The position numbers were made by a program, and so were the translations under genes. Shown here in pieces: positions 14,650 through 43,958 of a stretch of 64,000 bases of DNA. How positions within the stretch are numbered: the stretch's first letter is position 1; each line of letters opens with the position of its first letter. The DNA is from Malacoraja senta (taxonomy: Eukaryota): NCBI GenBank assembly GCA_038087875.1, contig CM075995.1, positions 6,016,001 to 6,080,000 of the forward strand. The letters are read 5' to 3'. The notes under the pieces are model-generated. The model was not told the origin of the DNA, made no database searches, and saw only the letters and a list, made by a program, of their open reading frames with translations.

Positions 14650-15660
14650 AATGCCAGACATCAATCCTCTCCAGTAATCACCCACCCATTCTGTATCATT
14701 AACTCCATTGAGTATCCCTAAAACAGCCAAACTAGCTGGATCAAGTGCAGAAACACAATGACCACAAGAGCAGAGCAGAGAGGTGTCTCACCTTCTAACA
14801 AGTCAAAGCCTTTTGATCATCTGCAAAGCATAAATAAGAATGTACACACAAAAAGCTGGAGTAACTCAGCGGGACAGGCAGCATTCCTTCTTTGGTGAGA
14901 AGGAATGGGTAACATTGCGAGTTGAGACCGATTCTCGACCTGAAACGTCACCCATTTCTTCCCCCCAGAGATGCTGCCTGACCCACTGAGTCACTCCAGC
15001 TTTTTGTGTCTATCTTCGGCTTAAACCAGTATCTGCAGTTCCTTCTTACATAGATAAGAATGTGATTGATTACACTCGATTTGCATGGATGAATTCAGCT
15101 CCCAAGAATTTTTTTAAAGCTTGACAAAATCCAGAACGTAGCACCAACTTGATTGACACCACATCTACCATTCTGAACATTCATTCTCAGCACCACTAGT
15201 GCAGAGTTACTGTAGTGTTTGCAGGTTATGAAATGTGCCACATTTGCTACTCCAACAGTTCTTTCCTTGCTCATCTTCTACTGCCAAGAATGTCTGTGGG
15301 CAGCATATATGCAGACATAAGAAAGTGCAGATTCTGGAATCTTGAGCAAAGCATAAAGTGCTGGAGTGGACCAGGCAACATTTGTGGAGGGAATGGATGG
15401 GTGACGTTTTGAGTTGGGACCCTTTTTCAAACTTCAGACAACATATATGGGAAAGCCACCACTCGCATGTCCCCTACCAAGTCGTACTTGAAAATATATT
15501 CTCATTCTGTCATGGTCAATGAATCTTAAATCTTGGAAGATTCATAATGCTGTTGGATTGGGAACGCCTTTGCCAGAAGTACTGCAACAGTTAAAAGCAA
15601 ATGGTTCGCCATCATCTTTCGGAGGGCAATAATACTGGCCTTTTCATCAATGTCTGCATT
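14650..15660 (+). mobile_element. Ancient decayed CR1/L2-group LINE remnant containing younger PLE fragments
   Basis: Residual YTRFAWMNSAPK..LDKIQ..LNIHSQHH peptide; similar old LINE at about 27150-28200. Confidence 0.45.
14844..15053 (+). mobile_element. Fold-back PLE-LTR mini-element
   Basis: TSD ATAAGAATGT at 14834-14843 and 15054-15063; inverted arms of about 90 bp. Confidence 0.8.
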
Positions 15661-16399
15661 CTAAAGTAATCAACTAACAGCAATTGTTCACTGTTCCAGA
15701 TCACCAAGTTCAATTCATTATCATGACCACGATTAGGGTGAAGTGCAGCTACAATGAAAAATCTTGCTTGCAGCAGCATCACTGGCATATACTCAGACAA
15801 ACAAATTAATTCATAAATTATACATAAGTTACACATAAAAGAAAAGACTGGAAAAAACTTAATCAGAAAAAAAACAAGTCCATTGTAATGCTAGGAATGG
15901 GCTGTGGTGTTCCATTGAGGTAGGTTTAGTTTGTGCAGCTTTGTTCAAGAATCTGATAGTTTTCAGGAGAAATATTTTTTTGGTGATATAGTACACATGG
16001 ACTGGTGGCATTGTTTGATAAAGTAGGTGCTTTATCTGCCTTCTATTTAATCATTAATTTAGACAAAAATATACAATTTAGCAGCTTGGACTTTCATTGT
16101 CAGATGCAAACTCTGATGCATTTCAGTAGTTAAAATGAAACCTCATGAGGTATGAATGCTTTTGTCTGTCCCCTTTTCAACTGGCTGGACAAGATTGTGT
16201 TCACCAACCTATCAGTAACGTAGAATGTGAAGTACGGTGATCCAGTTGTAACACTGGAATAAGCAGCTCATTCTGAAGTGACAATGTACAAGAAATCTGA
16301 AATAAAACAAAATCCTGGAAACACTCAACAGGTCAAGCAGCATGTATAGGAAGAGTTTAGTTTAGTGTTGAGAAAGAGTCAATGTTTCGGGTCAAAGAC

Positions 16400-16800
16400 C
16401 TCCTAGGGCTTTATTCCTTGGAATGCAGGAGGATGAGGGGTGATCTTATAGGGGTGTGTAAGATTGAATGGAATAGACGGGATAAATGCACAGAGTCTTT
16501 TACGCAGAGTAGGGGATCAAGAACCAGGGGACATAGGCTTGGGGGGAGGGCAGAGATTTAATAGGAACCTGAGGGGCAAATTATTTACAAAAGGATAGTG
16601 GGTATATGGAACGAGCTGTCAGAGGAGGTAGTTGAGGCAGGTACTATCACAACATTTAAAAGATATTTGGATAGGTACATGGATAGGATAGGTTTAGAAG
16701 GATATGGGCCAAATGCGGTCAGTTGAAACTAGTATAGGTGGGACATGTTGGTCGGCGTTGGAAAATTGGGCCGAAGGGCTGTTTCCATGCTGTACGACTG
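16400..16800 (+). mobile_element. CR1 LINE 3' fragment
   Basis: Similarity to other CR1 3' ends in the window. Confidence 0.8.
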
Positions 16801-17010
16801 ACTGTGACCTTCATCAGGAGTTTTTGGTGCTTCCTGGGCGCTATGAAATGCAATATTAATGCATGATATTTTGAATGAATCTGTCCCACTTTGCGGAAAA
16901 GCAAAGATTTTAAATTTGTTTCCCGTAATTTAAAGAATTGAACAGGACCAAATTGCTGGGTTTACTTTATTTTTTATCACTGTCACCAAATATTACCTGG
17001 AAAAATTATT

Positions 17011-17081
17011 GGTAGACAAAAATGCTGGAGAAACTCAGTGGGTGAGGCAGCATCTATGGGGCGAAAGAAGTAGGCAACTTT
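17011..17081 (-). mobile_element. 71-bp PLE-LTR fragment insertion
   Basis: TSD GAAAAATTATT at 17000-17010 and 17082-17092. Confidence 0.7.
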
Positions 17082-18134
17082 GAAAAATTATTTATCATTT
17101 GAAATTTCTCAAATGAATTCAGTGATTCAGTGGAGCCACGTAGCAAACCTTAACTGAAACACAAGCAAGTTTGAACCTAGTATATGAAATTTCTGTCACT
17201 CTCCCATATAGAAGACAAGAGAAACATTGTCACATCTGATTCTAGGGATGTGGAATTGTTGAGATAAAACAAGATTGCGTGGAGTCCTGCGGGTTCAGAG
17301 TTGATGGTAAAATGGCAGGACGTAGGTGTTTTATTTTTAACCGGGAGAAATTTACCTTTGTTGATGAAGTTATAAAAAAGTGAAAAGGAGGAAGGAGAAA
17401 ATAAATCCTAGCTCTTCCTTTTTTCCATTGCTTACTGCTTTTGAACCCTGGGATGCACTTTTGAACAACTAATAACGGAAGAATATAGGCAATGAATGGG
17501 AAAGCCCTTGTAATTTTGGGGAACAAGAATCCCTGGTGGCAGCATAAGTAGATAAGCTGATGAAGAAGGCATGTGGGATAATTGACTTCATGGTAAAACT
17601 TTTAAGTTATTGTAAAACTTTATAAAACACTGCCAAAAGCCATAGTAGAGTAATTCAAAATTCCCCAAAAAGAAGTGATTCAGTCTGAAGAAAGGTCATG
17701 ACGCAAAACACGTCAGCTATTTCCCTTTACAGATGCAGCCTGACCTGCTGAGTTCCTACTTCCTACAGCACTTTAATTTGACACAAATGACAATAAAACA
17801 CTCTTGACTCGTATTGATGTGGTAAAGGATGGGTAGGAGTGCTCGTTAAGTGGAATTATCAGTCAGGATGGGGCCCAATACAGAAAGCACAAATACCAAG
17901 GCTGCACATTGAATGCAAAGTCCCAACAGAATACCTGTGGTCAAAGGGAATTAATTATCACTGTGAACCAGACTTCAGACAGGTTCTGTATGTCAATAGA
18001 TTTATCAAAGTTGAGGTTGTGAATCCGGTTGACTTTACTTACAATAGAGCAAACACCCATGGTTGGTGAATATTGAATAAGAATTTAATTCACTATGTAG
18101 TCTATAGAGGAAAAAAATCTATACACCGTGGCAT

Positions 18135-20357
18135 AATATAATTTGGCGAAGGTCAGAACTGGACCAAGGGTTGAGATTTTTGATTGGAGAAAGGGTAACT
18201 TTGAGGAGATGCGAAAGGATTTAAAAGGAGTGAATTGGGACATTTTGTTTTATGGGAAGGATGTAGAAGAGAAATGGAGGACATTTAAAGGTGAAATTTT
18301 AAGAGTACAGAATCTTTATGTCCCTTTTCAGTTGAAAGGAAATAGTAATAATTGGACAGAGCCATGGTTTTCAAGGGAAATTGGACACTTGGTTCGGAAA
18401 AAGAGAGAGATCTACAATAATTATAGGCAGCATGGAGTAAATGAGGTGCTTGAGGAGTATAAAGAATGTAAAAAGAATCTTAAGAAAGAAATTAGAAAAG
18501 CTAAAAGAAGATATGAGGCTGCTTTGGCAAGTAAGGTGAAAGTAAATCCAAAGAGTTTCTACAGCTATATTAATAGCAAAATGATAACGAGGGATAAAAT
18601 TGGTCCATTAGAGAGTCAGAGTGGACAGCTATCTGCAGAGCCAAAAGAGATGGGGGAGATATTGAACAATTTCTTTTCTTTGGTATTCACCAAGGAGAAG
18701 GATATTGAATTATGTGAAGTAAGGGAAACAAGTAGAGTAGCTATGGAAACTATGAGATTCAAAGAAGAGGAAGTACTGACACTTTTGAAAAATATAAAAG
18801 TGGATAAGTCTCCAGGTCCGGACAGGATATTCCCGAGGACATTGAGGGAAGTTAGTGTAGAAATAGCAGGGGCTATGACATAAATATTTCAAATGTCATT
18901 AGAAACGGAAATGGTGCCGGAGGATTGGCGTACTGCGCATGTTGTTCCATTGTTTAAAAAGGGTTCTAAGAGTAAACCTAGCAATTATAGACCTGTTAGT
19001 TTGAAGTCAGTGGTGGGCAATTTAATGTAAAGGATACTTAGAGATAATATATATAAGCATCTGGATAAACAGGGTCTGATTAGGAACAGTCAACATGGAT
19101 TTGTGCCTGGAAGGCCATGTTTGACTAATCTTCTTGAATTTTTTGAAGAGGTTACTAGGGAAATTGATGAGGGTAAAGCAGTGGATGTTGTCTATATGGA
19201 CTTCAGTAAGGCCTTTGACAAGGTTCCACATGGAAGGATGGTTAAGAAGGTTCAATTGTTGGGTATTAATGGTGGAGTAGCAAGATGGATTCAACAGTGG
19301 CTGAATGGGAGATGCCAGAGAGTAATGGTGCATGGCTGTTTGTCAGGTTGGAGGTCGGTGACTAGTGGGGTGCCTCAGGGATCTGTGTTGGGACCACTGT
19401 TGTTTGTCATATACATCAATGATCTGGATGATGGTGTGGTAAATTGGATTAGTAAGTATGCAGATGATACTAAGATGGGTGGTGTTGTGGGTAATGAAGT
19501 AGAGTTTCAAAGTCTACAGAGAGATTTAGGCCATTTGGAAGAGTGGGCTAAAAGATGGCAGATGGAGTTTAATGCTGATAAGTGTGAGGTGCTACATCTT
19601 GGCAGGACAAATCAAAATAGGACGTACATGGTAAATGGTAGCGAATTGAGGAATGCTGTTGAACAGAGGGATCTCGGAATAACTGTGCATAGTTCCCTGA
19701 AGGTGGAATCTCATGTAGATAGGGTGGTAAAGAAAGCTTTTGATGTGCTGGCCTTTATAAATCAGAGCATTGAGTTTAGAAGTTGGGATGTAATGTTAAA
19801 ATTGTACAAGGCATTGGTGAGGCCAATTCTGGAGTATGGTGTACAGTTATGGTCGCCAAATTATAGGAAAGATGTCAACAAAATAGAGAGAGTACAGAGC
19901 AGATTTACTAGAATGTTGCCTGGGTTTCAGCAACTAAGTTACAGAGAAAGATTGAACAAGTTAGGTCTTTATTCTTTGGAGCGCAGAAGGTTAAGGGGGG
20001 ACTTGATAGAGGTCTTTAAAATGATGAGAGGGATAGACAGAGTTGACGTGGATAAGCTTTTTTCATTGAGAGTAGGGAAGATTCAAACAAGAGGACATGA
20101 TTTGAGAATTAAGGGACAGAAGCTTAGGGGTAACATGAGGGGGTACTTCTTTACTCAGAGAGTGGCAGCTGTGTGGAATGAGCTCCCAGTGGAAATGGTG
20201 GAGGCAGGTTCGATTTTATCATTTAAAAATAAATTGGATAGGTATATGGACGGGAAAGGAATGGAGGGTTATGGTCTGAGTGCAGGTAGATAGGACTAGG
20301 TGAGAATAAGTGTTCTGCACGGACTATAAGGGCCGAGATGGCCTGTTTCCGTGCTGT
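18135..20357 (+). mobile_element. Young CR1 LINE, 5'-truncated ORF2 with RT (premature stops at about 18881 and 19027)
   Basis: ORFs 18143-18883 and 19103-20293 with PQGSVLGP and YADD; 3' UTR continuing to a (TTATATGG)n tail at about 20378. Confidence 0.95.
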
Positions 20358-20859
20358 AATTGTTATATGGTTATATGGGATAGCCTTTAAATTCTGTTCA
20401 AAGACAAACTGCAATCCATTACTAAATTGCACTCATTTTTCTTACCTTATTGCTTTCATGGCATGCATCTTGAATGTTTATCTTAAAGTCAAATCACTTT
20501 TTTCAAAGCGATTGAACACAATATTTCACTAGACTTGTTGGCAGTAAAGTGATTTAAAAGGAACTTCAGTCCCTCAGGATTAAGGAAGCAGAATGTACAT
20601 AAAACTTTTGTCATATCTCTTACTAGTTTGGAAATATGTCAAGAAATCTTAGAAAAGAAACCTCATCTATCTGTTCAGAGCTCTTCTCTGTTCAGAAAAT
20701 TTTGCATGCTGCAAAATACAAAGCTAGAAGCAATAGTGGGCTGATGATAGAAATGGTGCCAGCCACAGTTTTGGTGACGAGAAAGATATTTATTCCCACC
20801 ATAGGCGTCACACCTGAGATATTTCCAACTTCTTTTTTAAAAAAAACACTGACAAAGTC

Positions 20860-21125
20860 TTACCCAGGGTAGGGGAATGCGAGAGGGGCAAAATTTAATA
20901 CGAATCTGAGGGCCAACTGTTTCCACTCAAAGGGTGGTGGGTATATGGAACAAACTGCCATAGGCGGTCGTTGAGCCAGATACTATAACAGCATTTAAAA
21001 GACTCTTCGATGGCTACATTGCTATGAAAGGCTTAGAGGGGCGTGCCAAACGGGACGAGCTTAGATGGGGGACCTTGGTTGGCATGGACGGGCTGGGCCG
21101 AAGGGGCTGTTTCTGTGCTCCATCA
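20860..21125 (+). mobile_element. CR1 3' fragment, degenerate
   Basis: Similarity to CR1 3' ends. Confidence 0.65.
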
Positions 21126-23129
21126 CTCAAATTATTCTAAAAAATGACTGGATTAAAATAAAAGTGAATATCTACATTCATAGCAGTAATACCTCCCAAT
21201 ACAGAGCAAAATGTAATTGTGTGGTGCCTGACTACAGACCAAAAGATGAAAATTAGAACTTGTTTATGGGTGGTGGCGATAAGATGGTAATTATGTTTAT
21301 CACAAGGCTCAAAGGAGTTCAAATAGGTTAAGTCATTTGAAGACTTCTGAGAACAGGCCTCTTAGAATTATCAATAGAATTTCAGAAGTATAATGCCAGA
21401 ATGCGAAGTGCTTGCACAGTAGCCATGGAAATTGTCTAAAAACTATATTTTCTCAATAATTTAACAATAATTGTCTAAAAACAATATTTTCTCCTCCGCA
21501 ATATTATTACAAGCAGTCGAATACTGGGTTAAGTTCCTGAGGATATGTCACTGGTGTTAATGATGAAAGTAATTAGGGGAGTAAATTGAAAGTATCAGTG
21601 GAGAAAACTAAAGCAATAACATCAGTGCAAGTAATCTGCAATTTCTTCCCTTTCTTGCCATTGTGGTTACGATAATTCCCATTCATTGATATTAATTTGA
21701 GGCTTATGCCACTTATTCGATTTCCCACTTCCATCAGCGATGTAAAAAAATAGCATTACCTATGTTATTCATGCGTAAAAAATAACAATGTACTGAAATA
21801 TAAAGCATGATTACTGAAAATGCAATTATCTATAAACATTTAAGGTGTTTTGCAGATTATGGTAGTGGAAAGATATTGATTGCACTGGAGGAGGTGCAGA
21901 GATGACTTACAAAGATACAGCCTGACTGGAAAATGTAGCTCTGAGGAAAGATTATTTTCTTTGTAACAGGAAGTTAAAGAGATACTTAATTGAAGAACCT
22001 ATTTTCTGACTCGGGGGTTAAAGTTAGCATGAATCGAATTAAAGTAATTGGATTAGAGGGAAATTTAGGAATAAAAATTTCACTCGTGGTGATGAAGACC
22101 TGAAATGCACTCCCTGAAAGCATGATAGAGTTAGAAACCGCATCACATTTAAACACTACTTGATTTGTACTTGAAGAGCCACGACTGGCAAGATTAGAGA
22201 CCTAGGGGTAGAAGATGCAACTAACTAGGTTAGGCAAGTCTTTTTTAACCAGCAGAGATGTGATGAGACAAATGGCTTTCTTTAAAAATCTTCTTCAATT
22301 CTATTCATTGATATTCCTTTAAAATTAAAATGGAAAACGATGAAGATGATCTGGCAACATATGTTGGAAAATAAACAGTTTGCATCTCGAGCAGATGACC
22401 TTTCACCAAGCACGAGAAATGCTGCAGAAAGGGGTGGGATAGAGTGGCAGAGCGTTGTGCCATTAATGTACTTTGCAGCGGTGACGCCTTAATGCAGCAC
22501 TCATTGAAATTGAGTAACTCGGATGCAATTTCCGTAATAAGCACATTATCTATTAAATGGTCAAATGGGTTCGCTTGAAAATTAAAGCACAAAACAAACC
22601 TTCATAGGTCAACTTGCCTACTCCTGGAATTAATCATGTGCCTCTAATGCAAGTATATCCTTGTTTAAATTAGAAATCAAAAGAGCATGAAGTATGTTAG
22701 GTGTTGTGTTGGTTGTGCCTATACAGTCATAGCAACATTTCCACATATTTGTACAGCATCCCCTTTTCAATAAACGTCTACATTTCACTGACTTTTCAAA
22801 TAGATGTTCTACCTGCATGTTAATTGTGTTTACTGAGGTATTTAGCAGTCCAGTCTATGGAAGGAAATAATTGGTAGAGATCTTGCTATTGATTTCCACA
22901 ACATGTAAATGTTCTCCATGTAAACAATATTATTTTCTAATCTTCCAACCAAAGGGGATAACCTCACATTGCCTCGCATTATGCCCCATCCAACAAATTT
23001 ATATTTAGTTGGTTAACCCATCTACATCCTCATGCAGACTTTATCATCCTTTCCAGGTACAATTTGCACTTCTTTGGAAAGCCCACCAAAGCCATGGCAC
23101 CAATCGATAACCCATTCACATTGGTTCTA

Positions 23130-23348
23130 TGTTATCCCGCTTTCGCATCTTATATATTCAATTTTTTAGCGACCAATTAACGTATGATCCCGCAGGTTTT
23201 TGAGATGTGGAAGAAAACTCATGCACCCGGAGGAAACCCACGCAGTCACGGGGAGAATGTGCAAACTCCACACGGACAGACCTACGTTCACAATTGAACC
23301 CGGGTGTCTGGTGCTGAGAGGCAGCACCACTGCACCACTGTGCTGCCC
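23130..23348 (-). mobile_element. V-SINE copy
   Basis: Reverse complement of the tRNA head and V-domain. Confidence 0.7.
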
Positions 23349-23549
23349 TCATAGCTTCCTGTGTGATCAGGAAATTTGGTTGCAATACACTTGGTCATGG
23401 AGTCATAGAATTGCACAACACAGGAAAATGTATAATGCACATCATGTCCTTGCCGACCATCAAGTGTCTACCTCTACTAATCACATATTCCAGCACTATG
23501 TCCATATCTTTCTTGATGTTGCTGATTCAAGTGCACATCTAGATACATA

Positions 23550-24610
23550 AGTCAGAGGGTAGTTAATCTGTGGAACTCATTGCCACAGAGGGCTGTAGAG
23601 GCCAAGGCCAAGTCAGTGAATATTTTTAAGGCAGAGATAGACAGGTTCTTGATTAGAACTGGTGTCAAAGGTTATGGGGAGAAGGCAGGGATTAGGTGGC
23701 AGAGATCAGCCATGATTGAATGGCGGAGTAGACTCGATGGGCCGAATGTCCCAATTCTACTCCTATAACTTGAGAACTTAAATGCTGTGAGAGTGCCTGT
23801 TCTCCACTCAGCCATGCGTACTAGTTCATAACCACGCTGGGTGAAAGCATTCTTCCTCATGTTTCTTCTCACCTCCTACCACAAGTCTATGCCGTCTGAT
23901 TTTAGGCACCTCCGCTATGCGGAAAGGATTCTTACTATCCACTTTTCCGATGCTTCTTGTAATTTTCCAATTGTTCCTCTTCGGCTGCCTCTGCTCCAAA
24001 GAAAACAAACCCAACTTATCCAGTCACTCTATATAACAATTGTCATTTACTTTTCCAATGCAATCATGTCCTTCCTTGGTATATTGATCAGAACTGCACA
24101 TACTTCAGCCTAATTAGTGTTTTATCGATTTGTACCATAACTTCTCTGCATTTATATTTTTATGCCTTTGCACTAATTAGGATTAAATTCTGTCTGCCGT
24201 TGACCCAATAGATTCATTTCACCAACTGATCATCATCACCTGTAACCTACGACTCATACTTGCCATCAAATTTTATATCATCTGAAAATTTACTAATCAT
24301 CCCTCCTGCATTCATATCCAAATGGTTAATGTATATAACCAACAGTAAGAGTTCCAACTGTAATCTATGTGGTAGATCAAACATTGTAGATTTCCTATCA
24401 CAAAAACAACCCTCCACCATTATACTCAGCTTTCCATTATCAAGTCAATTCTGAATCCAATTTATCAACTTGCCCTGACTTAAATGGGCTCTAATCTTTT
24501 GGACCAGTCTCCCATGTGGTACATTGTCAAAGGCCTAACCTATCCTGAAGTCCATGTAGATTACATCACCCTCACCAATATATTTTGTTGTTTCTTCAAA
24601 AAAATTCTAG
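23550..24610. mobile_element. CR1 fragments: + strand 3' end (23550-23775) and an old - strand RT remnant (23780-24610)
   Basis: PQRAVEAKSVNIFKAEIDRFL; decayed RT motifs on the - strand. Confidence 0.6.
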
Positions 24611-26935: not shown

Positions 26936-28269
26936 GTAAGAGATCTAATCCTGTTTTCTTATTCCTTGGAGTTCTATTAATGCTAAAAATAATTTGATGG
27001 AGTGTGCTTCTCTTGTTACTTGTATGAATAAAGCTTGTGCATGCTATTTTGTCCTCTTCCCAGAGCACCATTTCCTATTTTGTGTTGTAAAAAGATGATG
27101 TTTCTAGTGATTCAGGGATAGCTTAATGATTATATGGGTATATCTCGTATATGTCACTGCCTGATATGTGTGGGCGATCCACAAGGATCTTGAGGATTAA
27201 TTATCAAGGACGCTAATCTTCAATCATTTCAGTTTACACCACGTGGTATAATAACCAGTGGACATCATGAAGCCTTGGACCTTGATATGTTTCCTGTCTG
27301 CATTTCTGGTCATGGTTCAGAGCTTGCTGTGCCCCTTGTCAAATTGTTCCAGCGCACAATTATCCGCAGGTATCTCTCCGAAAGTGTGGAATGATACGCA
27401 GACACGTCAAGTCCACTAAAATCAGGTGAAATCTAATTATTACCCAATTTTTCAACTGTTCATTATCAGCAAACTGATTGGCAATGAAAATGCTATGAAA
27501 TAACACCTACTCGTCAATAATATACTCACTGATGCTCAATTTAGATTTGGCCAGAACTGCAGCTCCAGATATCAATACAAACTTGATCATGGGTGAATGA
27601 GTTGAATTTCAGAGGTGGGCTTCGAGAAGCACTTTATACTTTAATATAAAAAAAACCTTTATCAACTAAAAGTTCCAAGCACACACCACAAAAAGGTTAC
27701 TAAAAGACGTTTTTGCAGGAATCTAAAAGCAAATAAACTACAGAAATGAACTAATAACTACATAACAAACGAATAAACTACAGAAATAAACTAAACTAAT
27801 AAGCAAATAAACTGCTGGAAATCTGAAATACAAACACAATACTAGACATAAGGATTTAGCCAGGCAGCATCTGTGGGGAGAGGAACAGAATTATTGTTTG
27901 AGATTGATAACCTTTCATCAGCTTGCTTCAATCATCAGCAGAGTGATGAAAATTGTTAATGCTGCCAGGTTGCAGAGTATTTCTGGCAGTTTTTGTTTTT
28001 ATTACATACCTGCAGGAATTTTTGCAACAATGTCAAAGATCCAACTGTCTTGCGATGCTTTCAGGACCTTCCCTCCATCATGAGGTCAAAATGGGGTTGT
28101 TTGCATTTTACATCGTTAAATTCTGTTTATAAATCCTCACAATGAAGAAGTTCATGCCTGTGCAGAAAGACTCAAATAATATTAAGGGGCTAGTATCATT
28201 AACACTGCACGTGTAGCAGGGTTCCCCTTATTTAAGAAAAAGGGGTAAGCCATTTAAAATGGAGAAGAG

Positions 28270-30125: not shown

Positions 30126-30263
30126 ACTTCAGAAGAAAGGTTCTGAATAAAAAAACGTCGCCTATCCATGTTCTCCAAGAGATGCTGCCTGACCCATTGA
30201 GTTACTCCAGCACTTTGTCTTTTTTTTGTTGTAAACTTGCATCTGCAGTTCCTCGTTTTTACA
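30126..30263 (+). mobile_element. PLE-LTR fragment with decayed hammerhead core
   Basis: GAGATGCTGCCTGACCC..GAGTTACTCCAGC..GCATCTGCAGTTCC shared with other copies. Confidence 0.65.
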
Positions 30264-30592
30264 CGGTTTAACTATTTGGTTGTAAATATTTTGTTTACCT
30301 AGTGAGTGAAATTAGTTTGTGGCTTAAGTTTTCCAATCTTTACCTAAATTCAACAACGTTACGAAACTTTGTCAACTATCATGTCAATTGTGATAGATAA
30401 AACACATTCCCGACCCAAAGTGTTTTAGTTCAAGGGACCAAACGCCAAAACTGAAACTCGGAGGCATAGAACATATCAAGTGAAGTCTTCATGGTTCAGT
30501 ACTGGTCTTGAGAACCATCGTTTTTTTGTCTTGTCATGCTTTGAAGATTTACATGTATTTTATTAATTTTTATTTTTGCACCTTGATTTCAG

Positions 30593-30692: not shown

Positions 30693-31604
30693 GTCAGTAA
30701 AGAAATCTACAGACTTAAGTTATTCGTTCTACCACTAATTACCTTAGTGCGGTTATTTTAGAATGTATCCTAATATATTGGCCAACTTTGATCTACTGTG
30801 GAGTAACAGATGGCAGTCTGGGGTCTGAAGCCCTCTTGTGATATCTGGGCTTCATCCATACTAGATTGGAAACTAATTCAGCGATGGCGGTTTACAGTTA
30901 AAATCATGGATGTCATGAACATGGGGCCAATGTAATTTTCCTTCAGGTGACTTTCAACTTCAATTTGGCTAATTTATTCGATGCAGTTCTGCACACTTGC
31001 TACTACTATCCAGGTTATCACAAGAGGACCCGAAGGGTCATTACTGGAATAACTGCCTGTTATGAGGCTACACACTGCTCAGTACAGGGCTTGCTCTAGG
31101 AAAGCAATATGTGTATGTATGGAGTCAATTGAATGGTAGTTGTCAGAAAACTGACCCAGAATATGGAGTCAGTAGCAAATAAATCACACCTCGCTCTGGT
31201 GAGGAAACAAGTTCCCACAAAGATGTAGTAAATTTTTTTGGTGAGGACTTGGCATTTTTCTGCCATCTCTTTCAATTGAAAGTACAATGGAATACCTTCT
31301 GTGTTTGGCATGCCATTGGGCAGACTGAATAGACAATCACAGTGCAAAATTCTCAGACAGCACATCAAGGCGCATTTGTTTACGAAGGAATGAAGTACAT
31401 ATTAAAGTTGCAGCAGAAAAATGAAATAACTTCAAATGAGGGGTTTTATTTTTGTACGTTCTAACTTTTACCGGAATACATTTGTTATGTGCAACAAAAA
31501 TAATCTGCTGCCGGAACTCAGCAAATCAAGCAACATCTGTGGGGATGGCAGGAGGGGAGGGAGGAACTTTCAATCGCTCGGGTTGAAATCATACACCACT
31601 GCAA

Positions 31605-33629: not shown

Positions 33630-34210
33630 AGGACTACGATATAAAAACAGGAATGCATTGCTGAGGCTTTATGAGGCACTGCTCAGACCACATTTGATGT
33701 TTTGTGAACAGGTTTGGGCCCCATATCTGAGGATGGCTGTGCAGGATGAGCCAGGATGAGAGGGTCCAGGATGAGCGTTTGATGGCACTGGGCCTGTACA
33801 CACAGGAGTTTCGAAGGATGAGGGGAGACCTCATTGAAACTTACCGAACAGTGAAAGGCCTGGATAGAGTGGATGTGGAGAGGATGTTTCCTCTAGTGGG
33901 AGAGTCTAGGACCAGAGGGCACAGCCTCAGAATAAAAGTACATAGCTTTTGAAAGGAGATGAGGAGGGATTTCTTTAGCCAGAGGCTGGTGAATCTGTGG
34001 AATTCATTGCCACAGACTGCTGTGGAGGCCAAGTCAATGGCTATTTTTAAAGGGGAGACTGACAGATTCTTGACTAGTAAGTGTGTTAAAGGTTATGGGG
34101 AGAAGGCAGGAGAATGGGGTTAAGAGGGAAAGATAGATCAGCCATGATTGAATGGCGGAGTGAACTCAATGAATGGAATGGCCTGATTCTGCTCCTATGA
34201 ATTATGAACA
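33630..34210 (+). mobile_element. CR1 3' fragment
   Basis: LGLYTQEFRRMRGDLIETY. Confidence 0.85.
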
Positions 34211-35769
34211 TGATTTTGACGTCAAGTTGCAGTTGAATGATGTGGGGAAAGGAAAGAAACAAATTCCACGATAAAAAAAATCTCAGTCTAGTTAAGTCAT
34301 AAAGTCACAGACCGTGCAGCTTGAAAGCAGGCCCTTTGGCCCACCATGTCCATATCGACCAAGATGGCATTCTTCCATTTGCTTGAATTTTCCCATGCTC
34401 CTCCAACCTTTTCTATCCATACTTAGTATTTTCTCCCCATACCAGCCTATTTGCAAATTAATATTTGCAATATACAGGGGCGGGTGTGCGTGTGAGAGAG
34501 AGAGAGACAATTATTTAAATATTAATATTATAGTTGGATTTTCACCTTGAGTTGTCGCGAGGTGATCTGGGCAAAAGAAAGGAACTAATTCTTACTAGGA
34601 AAAAATCTCAAACTCGTATGTGTGTGTGAGGGAGGCATATTTAACAGTATCATTATATACAAGTATTCAAACTTTAATATTTTGGCCAGATTCCATTGTT
34701 GCAGTTACTTCAAAGTGTGGCTAAAAATAAATATCCTGCAAAATTAATGAATTCAATAAATAATATTTCAGAACCTATTTACTTGAGATGGGCTTGTTAT
34801 GAATATATTAAGGTAAAATTAAGTAACTGCTGTCATTGGGGGAAGAAAAATATATTGGTAGCAAATGTGGTTGCAAACAATCATTCTAATGAAAGGATGA
34901 CTTAACTGTTGTGCAGCTTGAACAACAATATATGTGTGATTGGGAATTGTGTGATATACATCAAAATGGCAAACTAATTACCTAATTAAGGTTTTCATAT
35001 GCTGTTGAAATCTGTTGTGCTGGATAGCTCATTGAAAAACTTGGCCAGAAGGTTTTAGGAGAATATTTGCAGTAATTTGATTTTTGGTGTAATAGGATAA
35101 TTTCATAATATTGTAGCGAAAGATAAGGCAGTAAATCAAACTTGATGAAAGCTGAATGGAATTCTCTTTTACAGTATTTCCCAAATACTTCTAAAATACA
35201 ATTTCTGAATGCATTGGTTGATAAAGCCGTAAATGTATACATGGTGTGATAATTCTTACACTGTTTTGAGCCAAATCCTGATAAAATTAAATTCAACCCA
35301 CATGGTATAAAATAGTTTTCATTAAATGATTGAACATTGCTATCAACATTAAAAAAGTAGCATGAAGAACAAATTGCTTGCTGTTCCACACTCATCACTG
35401 GTGCAGATGGGCAGAGGATGGAACATGCTGGGATTCATCTTAGCAGTAAATTGTCCAGGCTTTGTTCTTTATCAACCAATGCACTCAGAAATTTTACTTA
35501 CGAAATATTTGGGAAATGCTTTAAACACACTTAGCGTTCCACTCAGCGTTTATCAAGTTCAACAATGCCTTGGAGTCATAGAGTGATACAGAGTGGAAAC
35601 AGGCCCTTCGGCCCACACCGGCCAACATTGTCCCAGCTACCAGAGTCCCACTTGCCTGCGCTTGGTCCATACCCTCCAAATCTGTCCTATCCATGTACCT
35701 GTCTAACTGTTTCTTAAACAATGGGATAGTCCCAACCTCAACTACCTCCTCTGGCAGCTTGTTCCATAT

Positions 35770-36367
35770 GCGGTGACCGCCGAGATCAACACCTCCGGGC
35801 TGCCAGTCTGCGGAGCGACCAGCTGCGGGCGGCGGCGCCGACTTTAACATCAGGAGCCTCGTGGCTCTAACTCGGCGCGGCCCTGTCGGCTTCAGGTGCC
35901 ATCGACTCCGCTGGGAAACCGGCCGTTCCAGCCGCTGCGAGGACTCTCCCGATGGCCAGGAACATCGGGCCTCCGTAGAGGCAACTGTGGCGGCCTCGAT
36001 GGGCCTGACTCTGGGGAGAACTGGGTTGGGGACTGGACATTGTGCCTTCCCCCACAGTGGTAACCATTGTGGGGGGATGATTTTGTGTGTAGTGTTAAGT
36101 GTCTGTGTTAGTCTATGTCCAACATGGCGGGCGGAAGGGAGAGTGTACGCTGGCGCGGTTTGGCTGCCGCTGCTCTCCCTTCATGTTGTGTTTTCTGAAT
36201 TTTGTTGTCTTTTTTTGGATCGAATTTCTGTTTTTAATTTGTGTATTTGTGATGTCTTTATAACTTGTTTTACTCTGATTATATGTTTATATGTTTCTTA
36301 AATTGTAAGGTGTCCTAGAGACCTCGGTATTAGGCGCCCTTAAAATAAAATCTATTATTATTATTAT
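35770..36367 (+). mobile_element. Non-coding GC-rich element with L2-type 3' tail
   Basis: Ends AAATAAAATCTATTATTATTATTA, as in the L2 tail at 47011-47035 (reverse complement); interrupts CR1 between GTTCCAT and ACACCCACC. Confidence 0.65.
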
Positions 36368-36380
36368 ACACCCACCACCC

Positions 36381-36710
36381 TCTGTGTAAAAAAGTTACCC
36401 CTCGGATTCCTATTCAATCTTTTCCCCTTCACATTGAACCTATGTCCTCTGGTCCTCGATTCCCCTACTCTGGGCAAGAGACTCTGTGCATTTGTGTAAA
36501 AAAGTCACCCCTCGGATTCCTATTCAATCTTTTCCCCTTCACATTGAACCTATGTCCTCTGGTCCTCGATTCCCCTACTCTGGGCAAGAGACTCTGTGCA
36601 TCTGTGTAAAAAAGTTACCCCTCGGATTCCTATTCAATCTTTACCCCTTCACATTGAACCTATGTCCTCTGGTCCTCGATTCCCCTACTCTGGGCAAGAG
36701 ACTCTGTGCA
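36381..36710. repeat. Tandem triplication of a 110-bp CR1 segment
   Basis: Units start at 36381, 36491 and 36601 and are nearly identical. Confidence 0.95.
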
Positions 36711-36998
36711 TCTACCCGATCTATTCCTCTCATGATTTTGTATACCTCTATAAGTTCTCCCCTCATCCTCCTACGCTCCATGGAATAGAGACCCAGCCTA
36801 CTTAACCTCTCCCTATAGCTCACACCCTCTGGTCCTGGCAACATCCTCGTAAATCTTTTCTGAACCCTTTCAAGCTTGACAATATCTCTCCTATAATGTG
36901 GTGTCCAGAACTGAACACTATATTCTAAATGCGGTCTCACCAACATCTTATACAACTGCAAAATGACCTCCCAACTTCTATACACAATACTCTGACTG

Positions 36999-37371
36999 AC
37001 TTGGACACGCTAGAGGCAGGAAACATGTTCCCGATGTTGGGGGAGGCCAGAACCAGGGGCCACTTAAGAATAAGGGAAAAGCCCATTTAATTACCCCATT
37101 TAAGAATAAGGGTAAGCCTTTTAGAACGGAGACGAGGAAACACTTTTTCTCACAGAGAGTTGTGAGTCTGTGGAATTCTCTGCCTCAGAGGGCGGTGGAG
37201 GCCGATTCTCTGGATACTTTCAAGAGAGAGCTGGATGGGGCTCTTAAAGATAGTGGGATATGGGGAGAAGGCAGGAACGAGGTACTGATTGGGGATGATC
37301 AGCCATGATCACATTGAATGGTGGTGCTGGCTCGAAGGGCCGAATGGTCTACTCCTGCACCTATTGTCTAT
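36999..37371 (+). mobile_element. CR1 3' fragment nested in the - strand CR1
   Basis: Host ACTCTGACTGA|TGAAGGCC is split; ATTGTCT-type tail. Confidence 0.8.
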
Positions 37372-38679
37372 TGATGAAGGCCAAAGTGCCAAAAGCCTTT
37401 TTGACCACCTTACCTACCTGCGACTCGACCTGCAAGGAACCATGGACTTGTACTCCGAGATCTCTCTGCTCTACAACACTACCCAGAGGCCTACCATTTA
37501 CTGTGTAGGTCCTGCCCGTGTTCGACGTCCCAAAATGTTATTATATTTCTCCACAATATTATGGAATTATCTAACCCTTGAACAACTTACATTACTGTCT
37601 TAAAGTACACACTTGTCGCAATGAGTTTAGACAATAGACAATAGGTGCAGGAGTAGGCCATTTGGCCCTTCGAGCATTCAATGTGATCATGGCTGATCAT
37701 CCCCAATGGGATGGGATTTACAATGGTTACGGTTGTATATTCTTGGTCTGTAGTAATAGTTGTGCCTTTTTAAATCTTATAGATGAGATTTTTTAGAGCA
37801 TTATCATAACATTTCTGTGCATGACGTTGATTGCGATAAAAGTAAAATATTCTGAATTTGAACATAAAAAGTTACAGTCAGTTGGTCAAGCGGCAGGTGA
37901 AGCGTGGGACTGAAGGAGACCAAGGCAGGTCTGAGAATGAGGGGGAATAAGAGGAGGTAAGCCCAGATTCACAGCGAGTGTAGGACAGTACTGGGTGCTT
38001 GGTTATCCGTGCATCGCTCAGGAACTGGTCATACAGAAGGAGCTGTAACGCGTTGCCTTTACTGTCTGTGCTATCGTGAGCTGCCCACTTTCTCATACTA
38101 CTAGGGCTGGCTGTCCCCTGACCTGAGTGCCTGCCTGAACCAGACTCACGCAATACACCCCCGCACTGACAACAGGACCATGCTGCCCACTGGCCTGTTT
38201 ATAAAATCATGAGGGGCATAGAGAAAGTAAATTGCCACATTCTTTTTCACAGGGTAGGGGAGTCCAAAACTAGAGGGCATGGGTGCACCTCTGAGTCTAG
38301 GATCTTAACACTGGAGTGACTGCATCGTTGCACCCAGCCACTCTGGAACAATTCTTTGCTGGGGTGTGCCAGTGGAGGGCACAGAAATGTGCCAGGTTCC
38401 TTGAGTAGTAGGTAGTTGGAGGGGAAAGGGGGGAATGGTGGGGGATACTAATTGGTTCCTGGCACACCATCATGCAACTCGCACGTCTCTATTCTTTAAA
38501 ATAATGTGTGTCATGGGTGAGTTTAGTGTTGAGGACTGGAGAACCAAGAGCACTTAAAGTGCAGGATACCATTAGTTTAGTTTATTGTCACATGTACCGA
38601 GGTACAGTGAAAAGCTTTTGTTGCATGTTAACCAGTCAGCGGAAAGATTACAATTGAGCTATCTGCAGTGTACATAGGT

Positions 38680-39712
38680 CCAGGGGGTCACAGCTTAAGA
38701 ATAAGGGGTAGGGAATTGAAGAATGCAGGTGAACAGAGGGATCTTGGAATAACTGTGCACAGTTCCCTGAAAGTGGAATCTCATGTAGATAGGGTGGTAA
38801 AGAAAGCTTTTGGTGTGCTGGCTTTTATAAATCAGAGCATTGAGTATAGAAGTTGGGATGTAATGTTAAAATTGTACAAGGCATTGGTGAGGCCAATTCT
38901 GGAGTATGGTGTACAATTTTGGTCACCTAATTATAGGAAGGATGTCAACAAAATAGAGAGAGTACAGAGGAGATTTACCAGAATGTTGCCTGGGTTTCAG
39001 CAACTAAGTTACAGAGAAAGGTTGAACAAGTTAGGGCTTTATTCTTTGGAGCGCAGAAGGTTAAGGGGGGACTTGATAGAGGTCTTTAAAATGATGAGAG
39101 GTATAGACAGAGTTGACGTGGATAAGCTTTTCCCACTGAGAGTAGGGAAGATTCAAACAAGGGGACATGACTTGAGAATTAAGGGACAGAAGTTTAGGGG
39201 TAACATGAGGGGGAACTTCTTTACTCAGAGAGTGGTGGCTGTGTGGAATGAGCTTCCAGTGAAGGTGGTGGAGGCAGGTTCGTTTTTATCATTTAAAAAT
39301 AAATTATATAGTTATATGGACGGGAAAGGAATGGAGGGTTATGGTCTGAGCGCAGGTATATGGGACTAGGGGAGAATACGTGTTCGGCACGGACTAGAAG
39401 GGTCGAGATGGCCTGTTTCCGTGCTGTAATTGTTATATGGTTTATATGGTTATATAAGACTGAGATGAGGAAAATCTTTTTCGCCACAAAATTTGTAAAT
39501 CTGTGGAATTCTCTGCCACAGAAGGCAGTGGAGGTCAATTTACTGGATGTTTTCAAGAGAGAGTTAGATTTAGCTCTTAAGGCTAACGGAATCAAGGGAT
39601 ATGGGGAAAAAGCAGGAACGGGATACTGTTTTTGTATGATCAGCCATGATCATATTGAATGGCAGTGCTGGCTCGAATGGCCTACTCCTGCAACTTTTTT
39701 CTATGTTTCTAC
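38680..39712 (+). mobile_element. Young CR1 (about 38712-39450) nested in another CR1 3' fragment
   Basis: ORF 38668-39369; host resumes at AAGACTGAGATGAGG. Confidence 0.85.
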
Positions 39713-40057
39713 ATTTGCACGATAATGGCGATAACGTTTAGTGCAAGATATAGTTCAGTAAAGTCCGGTTAAATATAGATATTAAAGATAAGGATGCTTG
39801 TGTTGAAGCTCCCAATGAACTAATCCACGATCCCACCACAGATGTCGCATGACCCGTTGAGTTCCTCCAGCATTTTTTTGCCAATAAAATACCTAGTTGT
39901 TTATCTAGCTGTTGTTTGTGGGTCCTTGTTTTATGTAAATTGTTTGTCCTATTTACTTACAATAATAAATATATTTTGGAAGTACTACTTCTATAACAAT
40001 ATTCCCAATTAATGTTAGGAGATCTTTTGTCCTCCAAATGTTTTAATTTACTGCGTG

Positions 40058-40601
40058 GAAACATAGAAACATAGAAACATAGAAATTAGGTGCAGGAGTA
40101 GGCCATTCGGCCCTTCGAGCCTGCACCGCCATTCAATATGATCATGGCTGATCATCCAACTCAGTATCCCGTACCTGCCTTCTCTCCATACCCTCTGATC
40201 CCTTTAGCCACAAGGGCCACATCTAGCTCCCTCTTAAATATAGCCAATGAACTGGCCTCGACTACCCTCTGTGGCAGAGAGTTCCAGAGATTCACCACTC
40301 TCTGTGTGAAAAAAGTTCTTCTCATCTCGGTTTTAAAGGATTTCCCCCTTATCCTTAAGCTGTGACCCCTTGTCCTGGACTTCCCCAACATCGGGAGCAA
40401 TCTTCCTGCATCTAGCCTGTCCAACCCCTTAAGAATTTTGTAAGTTTCTATAAGATCCCCTCTCAATCTCCTAAATTCTAGAGAGTATAAACCAAGTCTA
40501 TCCAGTCTTTCTTCATAAGACAGTCCTGACATCCCAGGAATCAGTCTGGTGAACCTTCTCTGCACTCCCTCTATGGCAATAATATCCTTCCTCAGATTTG
40601 G
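40058..40601 (-). mobile_element. Young CR1 3' fragment with (AACATAGA)n tail
   Basis: ORF 40161-40565; near-identical to 60287-60732. Confidence 0.9.
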
Positions 40602-40904
40602 TTAAGCAATCCTGCTTATTGACTGTCAAACCCCAATGATTAAATTGCTAACAGCCATGCACCTACTTATTTGGAATGAAGTTTGCATTTTAAACTCTCT
40701 GATACGTTGACACAATCGCTTCCTTCCTCAAAATTTCTCAGTAAAATAAAATATGTTTTACAATCTTAATCAAAAATAATCTTAATTTGTTTACGGACTT
40801 TTTCCAGTACTTAGAAATAAATTTTTACAAGTTTGTCTGTGTTTGAATAAGTCATTTATAGAATGTATCCTGGTGAACAAGATATTTGTATGGAATTTGA
40901 TGAT

Positions 40905-41361
40905 TTAGGCCAAAGGAATAACATGTGAAGACCATTTGAAGGCACTGGGCCTGTACTGGCTGGAGTTTAGACGGATGAGGGGACGCCTCATTGAAACTTA
41001 CCGAATAGTGAAAGGCCTGGATAGAGTGAATGTGGAGAGGATGTTTCCACTAGTGGGAGATTCTAGGACCAGCGGCCATAGCCATGGGGAAAATAGGACA
41101 TACCTTTAGAAAGTTAAGGAAGAATTTCTTTAGGCAGAGGGTGGTGAATTCAGAGGCTGTGGAATTCATTGCCACAGACGACGATGGAGGCCTTGTCAAT
41201 GGATATTTGTACGGCGAAGATTGGCAGATTCTTGATTAGCAAGAGTTATGGGGAGAAGGCAGGAGAATGGGAATGAGAGGGAAAGATATATCAGCTATGA
41301 TTGAATGGCAGAGTAGACTTGATGGGCTTAATGGCCTAATTCTGCTCCTAGAACTTATGAA
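40905..41361 (+). mobile_element. CR1 3' fragment ending about 35 bp before the exon 6 acceptor
   Basis: Same subfamily as 33630-34210. Confidence 0.8.
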
Positions 41362-41396
41362 TAATATTTGCTTCCTTAAAATGTAAATGTTCACAG

Positions 41397-41495
41397 CTTA
41401 CAGCACCTTCTACATTGTTGGCTTGATCTTATCAATGCAAGTGCCATTTGTGGGGTTTCAACCAATCCGAACGAGTGAACACATGGCGGCAGCAG
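41397..41495 (+). CDS. STT3B: STT3B coding exon (ortholog of exon 6), 99 bp
   Basis: cacAG|CT..GCAG|GTaag; [32 protein letters not shown]. Confidence 0.95.
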
Positions 41496-42887
41496 GTAAG
41501 TGACCTCATTTTAAAGTGCAGAACAACTTGGCTCTGAATTCTGCAATCCTAGGCTGCAAGCCATTCAACCCTACAGTATGAATGCCATAAATCCCAGTTA
41601 GTCATGCTGTCACTTGCTCTTTCCTCCTTTGGCTATATTAATTAATTCTTCAGAAAAGCATTCAGCAAAATAAATCCAGAAAGTAGCAGCTGAAAATTCA
41701 AAATGTTTATCTTATTAAAGATGCAGCAAATCCAGGATGTTTGCCTTATGCTGTGCTTTCAAGGTGGATTTGGTACAATATGTCAGAGGTGAAGTCTTAG
41801 CAACCACAGTTCTGACATAATTATTTCTAAGCAGCTAAGTGATTTTTGAATTGGTTTTCTATGTTAAGTGGACATTGTTAAATTGTCCAAATGCCAGTAT
41901 TTACTCTAAACACCCTGTTAATGCCCTCTTTATATATAACTTAAAACCTGAGTAAGATGTTGAGTTTCCAGAATGAAAATTATGTCATTTTGCCTGCACT
42001 TGCTAATAATTTTATTTTACATAGAATTAAGTGTGGCAACTAAATACTATTGAATGCAACCATTTTAAGGGCTACTTTGCCATTAAAGTAGTAACTCCTA
42101 CACCCACCCCCAAGGCCCAAGTTCCAGAAAAGAGCTAGGAAATGGTCTAAAATTTCCCATTAAAACCCAACACCACCATGTGGAAATGCCAAACTTGTCC
42201 CTCGTAACATTACATAGGTTTGGGACCATCGCACAACAGGGTGGAAATGCAGAGTTGCACATTGCCACTGGCAACCCACTGCACTTCAACGTTGTAGTTA
42301 CTGGTGTGAATTAACTCTGTCTGTTCCATTGGAGATTGCTTTGGTCAACCAAGCACAACTTTGTTATAATGACAAAGATAGACACAAAAAGTTGGAGTAG
42401 CTCAACGGGACAGGCAGCATCACTGGAGAGAAGGAGTGGATGACGTTTCGGGAATGGCCCCTAGATTAATATTGTTAAGTGCCACTCATGTTATAGTGAC
42501 ACAAATACTGTAGGCAGTTAAAATTCCGCTTTTATCAGTTTGTTACGAAATACACAAGTTTACAAATTGAGTTCAATTTTAATGATTAAAATAATATTAA
42601 TACAAGCTATCCCATGCTTCCCTCACTACATCTCCATTATTCCACCTTCTCATGCTCTTCTAAGATGCACTCAAGTCTCCCTCTGATCAGAATGAGTGCA
42701 ATCAAACCTTAACAAGAAGGCGACCGTGATCTCATGTGCAGTACACCAGTTTCACAGTACTGGGATCCCTTCCTAATTGGGTTTGTCTTTAATAGTCATT
42801 TCCCTAATCGATCAACACGGGGGGGGGTGTTAACCAGCTTAGCAAGGAATATAATATTATTGAAATGAAGCTTCGTCAAAATAAATG

Positions 42888-43028
42888 TGTAGGAAGGAAC
42901 TGCAGATGCTGGTTTAAACCAAAGACTTAGTCTGAAGAAGGGTCTCGACCTGAAACGTCATCCATTCCTTCTCTCAAGAGATGCTGCCTGTCCTGCTGAG
43001 TTACTCCATCATTTTGTGTCTATCTTTG
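42888..43028 (+). mobile_element. 141-bp PLE-LTR mini-element carrying an intact minimal hammerhead core
   Basis: 13-bp TSD GTCAAAATAAATG at 42875-42887 and 43029-43041; inverted 5' part followed by a sense part. Confidence 0.8.
42928..42965 (+). ncRNA. Putative minimal type I hammerhead ribozyme
   Basis: CTGAAGA (42932) - A - GGGTC/tc/GACCT stem II - GAAAC - GTC; stem I is weak, so activity is unproven. Confidence 0.55.
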
Positions 43029-43166
43029 GTCAAAATAAATGCTGAATGTCTTGGGCCATGGGTTGAGAAACTAATTGAACAATGTTACGGGCTTTATTTT
43101 TTAACATGTTTGTACCTCTTCTTTGGGAGTGTAGATCATTTCACCCTCTTGTTCTCTTGCAATCAG

Positions 43167-43313
43167 GTGTATTTGCCCTGCTCCAGGCCTATGCCTTCTT
43201 GCAATATTTGAGAGACAGGCTGACAAAGCAGGAGTTCCAGACATTGTTTTTCTTGGGAGTGTCTCTTGCAGCTGGAGTGGTGCTTCTAAGTGTTATTTAC
43301 TTAACTTATACAG
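43167..43313 (+). CDS. STT3B: STT3B coding exon (ortholog of exon 7), 147 bp
   Basis: atcAG|GT..ACAG|GTgag; VFALLQAYAFLQYLRDRLTKQEFQTLFFLGVSLAAG..TYT. Confidence 0.96.
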
Positions 43314-43419
43314 GTGAGTCCATGTACGCGGCGTTATTGTACCACCTATGTGTTCCTACCCCCACCTCTCTCTCTAGTTGCCTGATCATATACAAAAGTA
43401 GGACAACTTGGTTTTCATT

Positions 43420-43702
43420 TGTGCGGCACGCTTGCGCAGCGGTACAGTTGCTGCTTTACAGCACCAGAGTCCCGGGTTCGATCCTGACTACAGGTGCTGT
43501 CTATACCGAGTTTGTATATTCTCTCCGTGACCTGCATGGGTTTTCCCCGGGAACTCTGGTTTCCTCCCACATTCCAAGGTTTGTAGGTTAATTGGCTTGG
43601 TAAAATTATAAATTGTCCCTCGTGTGTGTAGTGTTAATGTGCAGGGATTGCTGGACAGCGCGTACTCAGTGGGCCTGATTCCATGCTGTATCCCTAAACT
43701 AC
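43420..43702 (+). mobile_element. V-SINE copy
   Basis: B box GGTTCGATCC, V-domain, CR1-like tail. Confidence 0.8.
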
Positions 43703-43771
43703 ATTAAAAAAAATATATATGAGAGGTACCTAATTCTTTAGTGCAGCAAAGCATTTTGCTATCTTGGTGGT

Positions 43772-43958
43772 TTAAGAAGGAACTGCAGATGCTGGAAAAA
43801 TCTAAGGCAGACAAAAATGCTGGAGAAACTCAACGGGTGAGGCAGCATCTATGGAGCGAAGGAATAGGTGACATTTCGGGTCAAGACCCTGAAGAAGTAT
43901 CTATGGACCCATGGACTATGGCCTCACCCGCTGAGTTTCTCCAGCATTTTTGTCTCCC
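43772..43958 (-). mobile_element. Fold-back PLE-LTR mini-element
   Basis: 15-bp TSD TGCTATCTTGGTGGT at 43757-43771 and 43959-43973. Confidence 0.8.

Follow-up and report, generated by a model that had tools for sequence, protein, structure and literature searches.

Short, often fold-back insertions in a skate genome as probable end pieces of endonuclease-bearing Penelope-like elements

How the tandem and inverted insertions of Penelope-like elements (PLEs) come about, and which role the hammerhead ribozyme of these elements plays, are two questions raised by a locus of the skate Malacoraja senta. The window, meaning the whole stretch of 64,000 nt analysed here (assembly GCA_038087875.1, contig CM075995.1, positions 6,016,001–6,080,000 of the forward strand), harbours many small insertions bounded by target-site duplications (TSDs) and derived from the pseudo-long terminal repeat (pLTR) of a PLE, in which the core boxes and stem II of a hammerhead, predicted from sequence, are present. 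A cartilaginous-fish genome with many such mini-insertions offers a test bed, since breakpoints can be counted. A first-pass annotation had proposed that the short RNA defined by the ribozyme is itself the mobile unit, acting as the equivalent of a short interspersed nuclear element (SINE) that does not rely on RNA polymerase III (Pol III). In our analysis, the inserts are probably independent, dead-on-arrival end pieces of several endonuclease-bearing PLE families, primed from one or both target nicks at two internal start sites.

Throughout, arm coordinates are relative to the predicted hammerhead cut, −1 being the base that precedes it. The 3′ ends of the arms fall either at start site 1, which lies 60–70 nt past the predicted cut, or some 35 nt beyond it, and the stretch between the two end sites is the PLE 'tail'. 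Four separate insertions with TSDs of 10, 11, 13 and 15 bp had been reported, and all four duplications are confirmed as exact. The first (14844–15053; TSD 14834–14843/15054–15063, reaching 15 bp with one mismatch) is a fold-back, in which an inverted arm (about 14844–14930) running from start site 1 back to stem II is joined head-to-head to a sense arm (14933–15053) running from stem II to the end of the tail. The second (17011–17081, reverse strand; TSD 17000–17010/17082–17092) is a single 71-bp arm of sequence family B, whose 5′ end lies about 6 nt before the predicted cut and whose 3′ end is at start site 1. The third (42888–43028; TSD 42875–42887/43029–43041) is a tail-only fold-back: an inverted tail (about 42888–42923) is followed by a sense arm that begins 34–36 nt before the cut and stops at start site 1, and the two arms scarcely overlap on the element map. 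The fourth (43772–43958; TSD 43757–43771/43959–43973) is a family-B fold-back, whose inverted arm with tail (43772–43890) meets, through a 2-nt overlap, a sense arm starting at the first box of the core and continuing, past about 24 nt of scrambled filler, with a 3′ part to start site 1. The inserts are made only of pLTR sequence, usually as an inverted plus a sense piece, as had been noticed, the single arm at 17011–17081 being the exception among the four. In every case the join or truncation falls within the hammerhead motif or next to it (about −21/−16, −6, −35 and −20/−27), though never at the predicted cut. As a side observation, the arms of 14844–15053 differ at +32, where subfamilies are told apart in other parts of the window; this single site could reflect two distinct RNA templates.

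Such duplications are rare by chance, since a TSD score of at least 10 was reached in 0.3%, and of at least 8 in 2%, of 300 random intervals. The 28-nt motif quoted by the annotation has three matches at up to three mismatches, where shuffles (n = 100) predict 0.00, and a profile made from 13 window stretches yields 28 matches in the window and none in the reversed window. Each of the nine further fragments listed in the annotation has a profile match, the one at about 27800 being weak (E 0.002). The 26 scored arms comprise 25 nhmmer matches (the arm of family D being represented by its split-off half) and the second sense piece within 43772, while the doubtful matches at 14044 (E 0.046) and 33195 (E 2.8) were left out. 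Per-locus counts and the TSD search cover 21 loci of this one 64-kb window, two of the listed loci being one insertion. Convincing TSDs were lacking at 13 of the 21 loci searched, and four additional ones were found, at 5881 (10 bp), 7738 (8 bp), 15301 and 55605 (11 bp with one mismatch each). The eight TSDs, whose tabulation had been suggested, measure 8–15 bp and are 74% AT, compared with 59% for the window.

Among the additional insertions, 7746–7927 is an older family-C fold-back, with an inverted tail-only arm, a 4-nt-overlap join and a sense arm starting 34–38 nt upstream of the cut; its 8-bp TSD (7738–7745/7928–7935) has a score met in 2% of random intervals. At 15312–15438 (reverse strand) lies a decayed single arm with tail, which begins about 30 nt upstream of the cut. 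An inverted arm of about 32 bp (55616–55647, reverse strand) is inserted in the end of the PLE's own open reading frame (ORF), and reads skip it, with joints from 55600/55603 to 55644–55655. Finally, the fold-back at 56340–56523 is joined at a 9-nt palindrome overlapping the start of the hammerhead core; a TSD was searched for at this locus and none was found. This last fold-back is hosted by an inverted-repeat element with matching ends (56197–56645), which we take to be MITE-like (miniature inverted-repeat transposable element).

With regard to the source of these pieces, an informative end lies at 55422–55996 (forward strand). This 5′-truncated PLE copy comprises the C-terminal part of a GIY-YIG endonuclease (55422–55613 open), an upstream pLTR stretch of about 220 nt that is rich in pyrimidines, a hammerhead motif at 55900–55927, and an end at start site 1. 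The annotation had based the link to Penelope on a GIY-YIG domain in this copy. The link stands, through homologues; the domain does not, as the copy holds the C-terminal part alone, the GIY and YIG words are absent, and a Pfam search of the 64-residue piece gave no match. One search with the same 64 residues retrieved 21 proteins, among which Leucoraja and Rhinoraja sequences match best; another retrieved 103. The 64 residues share 52% identity with protein P0042 and 64–71% with skate proteins that have GIY-YIG matches, these matches lying upstream of the aligned region in several homologues. P0042 is a single chain that carries a reverse transcriptase (RT), a Cys linker and GIY-YIG, both RT and GIY-YIG scoring below the Pfam curated cut-off, and no RT is present in the window's own PLE copies. 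Because the homologues carry RT and GIY-YIG, the family is, judged by their sequences, an endonuclease-positive PLE of a skate-like genome. A C-x4-C-x2-C linker occurs in 22 of 118 proteins, close homologues included, and the window copies end short of it. The source element is probably of the Neptune type, the definition of which includes a Cys-rich linker between RT and endonuclease (EN) as well as RT phylogeny (PMC8557442). Four annotated host proteins (P0003, P0008, P0033 and P0060) contain a PLE endonuclease end, and these are probably gene-model artefacts or exonised fragments.

A second informative copy, 5891–6716 (forward strand), is an internally deleted partial tandem, in which a truncated pLTR with tail is followed by an interior of about 465 bp, an endonuclease remnant, and a second pLTR with hammerhead motif reaching start site 1, so that a pLTR unit stands at both ends of the element body. 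A 10-bp TSD (5881–5890/6717–6726) is common to the arm at 5889 and the long copy that ends at 6716, which therefore form one insertion. The interior, which follows the tail, may be the 5′ body of the element; one 26-residue match to it was set aside because of its C-terminal context. This element, with its ORF remnant, is also the one convincing case from a search for distant TSDs, two other matches being attributed to chance as neither adjoins any arm. A pattern scan for further copies gave none in viral contigs and none in genome contigs, and three metagenome matches, with unrelated flanks, were judged to be chance.

How would such pieces be made? The 3′ ends provide the first indication. 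Read and contig data of four runs were mapped onto 55420–56019, the loose ends and joints considered being the top ones listed, and loose ends behind 55989–55993 give the same tail extension in all four. Run X17 is probably DNA. Three of the five fold-backs have one arm ending at each 3′ site, and in two (42888 and 7746) the inverted arm is tail-only, which is probably the outcome of both primers acting on one RNA, one per start site. All five joins differ, overlaps of 2–4 nt and a short palindrome being among them. These features have precedents in the literature: PLE insertions with an inverted arm, a tail at one end, a TSD and a palindrome at the inverted join have been described (PMC8557442; PMC3846280), and the tail of the anole element PAc is the stretch between two adjacent internal starts of reverse transcription (PMC11167929). 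The anole protein cleaves and extends both target strands in vitro and favours AT-rich DNA (PMC11167929), and nicking is known in vitro for a Poseidon PLE.

Under the reading that we prefer, the GIY-YIG nuclease would nick AT-rich DNA on both strands, 8–15 bp apart, which would generate the TSD. Reverse transcription would begin inside the RNA at either of two sites about 35 nt apart, giving two possible 3′ ends and an optional tail. Where both nicks prime, two converging complementary DNAs (cDNAs) would be joined head-to-head through the overlap or palindrome and yield a fold-back. The cDNAs would end early, either at random, in stem II, or 1–10 nt upstream of the hammerhead core. The template would be an uncut RNA, and the ribozyme a passenger.

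The 5′ ends of the 26 arms bear directly on the nature of the template. Three lie far upstream, nine at −24 to −38, four at −11 to −24, two at −6/−7, none at the cut and six at +6 to +40, the last two arms consisting of tail only. None of the 23 short arms starts at the cut, where chance would place 1.3, and this zero alone is weak. The stronger point is that 15 of the 23 hold bases upstream of the cut, nine of them with essentially the whole core, since a cut RNA would lack these bases. In the mapped data, loose ends pile up before 55898 (−30) in three of the four runs (561, 661 and 1158 records), and the flanks of this pile are near-random and AT-rich (agreement 0.32–0.35). Raw-read depth rises 8.5-fold from bin 55880–55899 to bin 55900–55919, and 1.6-fold into the bin containing the cut.

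Several points weigh against our reading. The in vitro work on PLEs concerns another clade, and arm ends were placed by eye. The 5′ ends are unevenly distributed near the hammerhead motif, as had been expected, and the clustering is modest: eight of 21 loci fall within a single stretch of 10 nt (with truncation at a constant rate and any such stretch allowed, P = 0.011), a count reduced to five of 21 (P = 0.34) when three soft ends are treated as open. The pile before 55898 is inflated by a private reference base at 55897 and by the unrelated upstream pLTRs of other families. Contig depth is discordant between runs, the ratio of bin 55900–55919 to the ORF peak being 0.57, 0.38 and 1.35, against 4.9 in raw reads; contig depth was rejected as a measure of copy number, a use that the method itself warns against. 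No pile at the cut figures among the top loose-end and joint rows, where a small one could be missed, and no RNA start is seen in the raw reads, which stem from poly(A) RNA of a different organism. Lastly, homologue searches with the 465-bp interior of 5891–6716 were negative, and it is by position that it is read as a possible start of the ORF.

What, then, sets the boundary just upstream of the core? This region contains a 9-nt palindrome at −33 to −25, with a pyrimidine tract and an AG ahead of the core. The boundary site also fits the initiator consensus, which we take to be YYANWYY. Furthermore, PLE promoters are located in the pLTR (PMC2377424), and the activity of the anole PLE requires RNA some 55 nt past the tail (PMC11167929), which would be supplied only by the upstream copy of a partial tandem. 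For these three reasons together, we favour the possibility that the boundary may be an RNA 5′ end. Tentatively, and with more doubt than conviction, we can propose that most SINE-sized inserts are complete run-off copies of the 5′ leader of PLE mRNA, with a capped end 1–10 nt upstream of the core, made by an enzyme that binds just downstream of the tail and uses the two target nicks as primers at the two start sites. A literature search, which left subscription papers and Repbase aside, found no paper stating this.

A rather unlikely alternative retains the same insertion route and attributes the boundary at −30 to the DNA or the RT, through palindrome annealing and self-priming, or through stalling of the RT at the pyrimidine tract or a 3′ splice site. 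The join at 56343 does sit on the −33 to −25 palindrome, and palindromes at inverted joins have been read as self-priming (PMC3846280); however, the tail-only fold-backs at 42888 and 7746 and the single arm at 15312 end nearby without a palindromic join. As for splicing, the tract and the AG are in place, and in Drosophila Penelope an intron is described as ending at the 5′ edge of helix I, with transcription starting about 120 nt further upstream (PMC4209133; PMC2377424). Yet in three arms the 4–9 nt kept ahead of the AG agree with the unspliced pLTR, and no GT..AG skip ending there is found among the best 15 of 946 joints. An origin from spliced templates is not favoured, as the arms keep bases upstream of the AG.

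It is improbable that some of the short copies form a non-autonomous pLTR-only sublineage, which would owe its transcription to neighbouring promoters, be remobilised in trans and have ends that the ribozyme does not set. Precedents have been published, since pLTRs sufficed in cis to mobilise a host gene in a rotifer (PMC3846280) and non-autonomous PLEs such as MRC1 and Chlamys-N are known (PMC8557442, PMC9977147). In each of the four mapped runs, the depth of the 3′ segment is 4–12 times that of the ORF end, and two single contigs with one fold-back-type joint reach depths of 2629 and 1343, the short side of the joint measuring only 21–23 letters. Against this stand the five different joins, the presence of at least four sequence families among the arms, and the lack of closer kinship among short arms. 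Indeed, the six short arms of family A share a mean of 85.5% mutual identity, compared with 90% and 82% to two ORF-bearing copies (means worked out from the pairwise table), the 90% being raised by a deletion in that ORF-bearing copy. The RNA beyond the tail needed by the anole PLE would, if the same holds here, be lacking in short copies. No pLTR-only sublineage, on which the annotation had made its proposal depend, is seen in this window, and short-only clades may exist elsewhere in the genome. The annotation was right that the inserts are not of the Pol III type: none of the four holds an A and B box pair, while a control repeat at 43422, presumably V-SINE-like, has one. A tRNA gene search of the window found none.

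A strict hammerhead descriptor has one match in the window, a minimal type I motif at 42932–42959 (forward strand) with a helix I of 2 bp and a predicted cut at 42959/42960, and none in the reversed window. An Rfam search of the window gave no hammerhead, only two sub-threshold microRNA matches over fold-back hairpins, and the minimum-energy folds of seven arms are no better than those of shuffled sequences (z −1.1 to 0.9) and thus lend no independent folding support. According to PMC4209133, minimal PLE hammerheads are widespread as single motifs and also as opposite-strand pairs 100–700 bp apart, cleave poorly, and have already been attributed to truncated PLEs. In the anole study (PMC11167929), the PLE inserts uncut RNA in vitro, ribozyme mutants insert normally, and no RNA ends were reported at the cut. 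Furthermore, Chlamys PLEs are described as lacking canonical hammerheads (PMC8557442), and their new insertions have a median length of 128 bp (PMC9977147), so that shortness needs no ribozyme.

With regard to RNA, raw reads over the segment from the hammerhead to the tail show no strand bias (e.g., 1932 versus 1938), 98% of them continue into unrelated sequence, and no site gathers many starts or ends. This pattern fits PLE copies embedded in host transcripts and is silent on short, uncapped or circular RNA, which a poly(A) library misses. In run X22, reads over 55420–55720 (the end of the ORF and the start of the pLTR) are biased about 2:1 towards one strand, and the hammerhead-to-tail segment is unbiased.

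That a ribozyme-cut short linear or circular RNA is retroposed by the PLE protein like a SINE is highly improbable, for although none of the four named breakpoints is more than about 36 nt away from the cut, two arms start 6–7 nt from it, and PLE-derived hammerhead retrozymes exist in animals (PMC7229834; bioRxiv 10.64898/2026.07.22.740005), the short arms mostly hold upstream sequence and none starts at the cut, the sole descriptor-positive copy has a minimal helix I, the ribozyme is dispensable in vitro, no head-to-tail hammerhead array occurs among the 15 Tandem Repeats Finder rows of the window, whereas retrozymes need two tandem ribozymes, and none of the permuted or tandem copies expected of a circular template is found among the 21 loci. 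This part of the annotation was not borne out.

The architecture of the inserts is already known for PLEs, short inverted ends with tails having been described. A parallel also exists outside this group. In the twin priming of L1, the second target nick primes a second cDNA and leaves an inverted piece inside one TSD; priming occurs first at the poly(A) and the second site is variable. In contrast, two fixed internal sites appear to serve both primers in the skate inserts, whose arms often overlap on the map.

Canonical EN-positive PLEs (Penelope/Poseidon and Neptune; PMC8557442, PMC3846280, PMC2377424) are alike in the head-to-head inverted arm, the optional tail (about 35 nt here, 30–40 bp there), the join by palindrome or short overlap, the partial tandem, the minimal hammerhead in the pLTR and the 8–15 bp TSD. 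They differ in that most skate units have no ORF and the TSDs are slightly longer than the 8–10 bp reported in the rotifer; the passages of these papers considered here mention neither tail-only inverted arms nor an accumulation of 5′ ends immediately before the core. The anole Poseidon element PAc (PMC11167929) shares the two adjacent internal starts delimiting a tail, the AT-rich targets, the extension of both strands, and a hammerhead some 60–100 nt upstream of the starts. It is a member of the Poseidon clade with an ORF that begins in stem II, whereas the homologues of the skate family carry the Cys-rich RT–EN linker typical of Neptune and Nematis. The Chlamys PLEs of Chlamydomonas (PMC9977147, PMC8557442) similarly produce very short 5′-truncated insertions and have non-autonomous partners, but with an N-terminal endonuclease, microsatellite targets and no canonical hammerhead. 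Animal non-LTR retrozymes (PMC7229834; bioRxiv 10.64898/2026.07.22.740005) are also non-coding, pLTR-related and dispersed as monomers with a type I hammerhead; they are head-to-tail tandem units of fixed length yielding circular RNA, whereas the skate inserts occur singly or head-to-head, vary in length and mostly have a broken core.

The ends upstream of the core argue for an uncut RNA template in vivo, and the tail-only inverted arms for both target nicks priming at two known start sites. If the inserts were indeed run-off copies of the leader, they would preserve, to the base, fossil traces of the PLE start site and of a dimeric enzyme's twin priming, and no non-autonomous master would be needed for a short repeat to become abundant.

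The remaining pieces are single arms or fragments. Two without a detected TSD start close to the cut, at 10593–10662 (forward strand, 7 nt upstream) and 42371–42461 (reverse strand, 11–21 nt upstream). Among those with a soft end, 17676–17774 (forward strand, decayed, no TSD found) starts 33–37 nt upstream of the cut, and 30129–30264 (forward strand), a family-C arm with tail, has its 5′ end at about −26 to −33 and is possibly a longer copy with a deletion. The family-C piece at 63599–63730 (reverse strand) has a hammerhead motif and probable upstream pLTR, and its 3′ part is missing; it appears to extend into upstream pLTR-like sequence, of which there is no second copy for comparison. An old, weak fragment at 27800–27886 (reverse strand) and the profile matches at 31497–31545, 39831–39877 and 60195–60246 appear to start downstream of the cut. 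The divergent family-D arm (16305–16826, reverse strand), also with a soft end, is split inside stem II by a later insertion (about 16403–16794), a multi-copy repeat that is presumably the 3′ end of a CR1-like element. In family D, helix I is longer than in family A and its first pairs are different.

Other repeats occur in the window. At 45644–45946, inverted repeats of 79 bp (96%) have a partner segment 5 kb away at 50987–51050, an arrangement reminiscent of DIRS elements with their terminal repeats and internal complementary region; a 36-bp tandem repeat (49234–49569) lies between the two. At 36381–36713, three copies of a 110-bp unit with 97% identity are present within a dispersed repeat.

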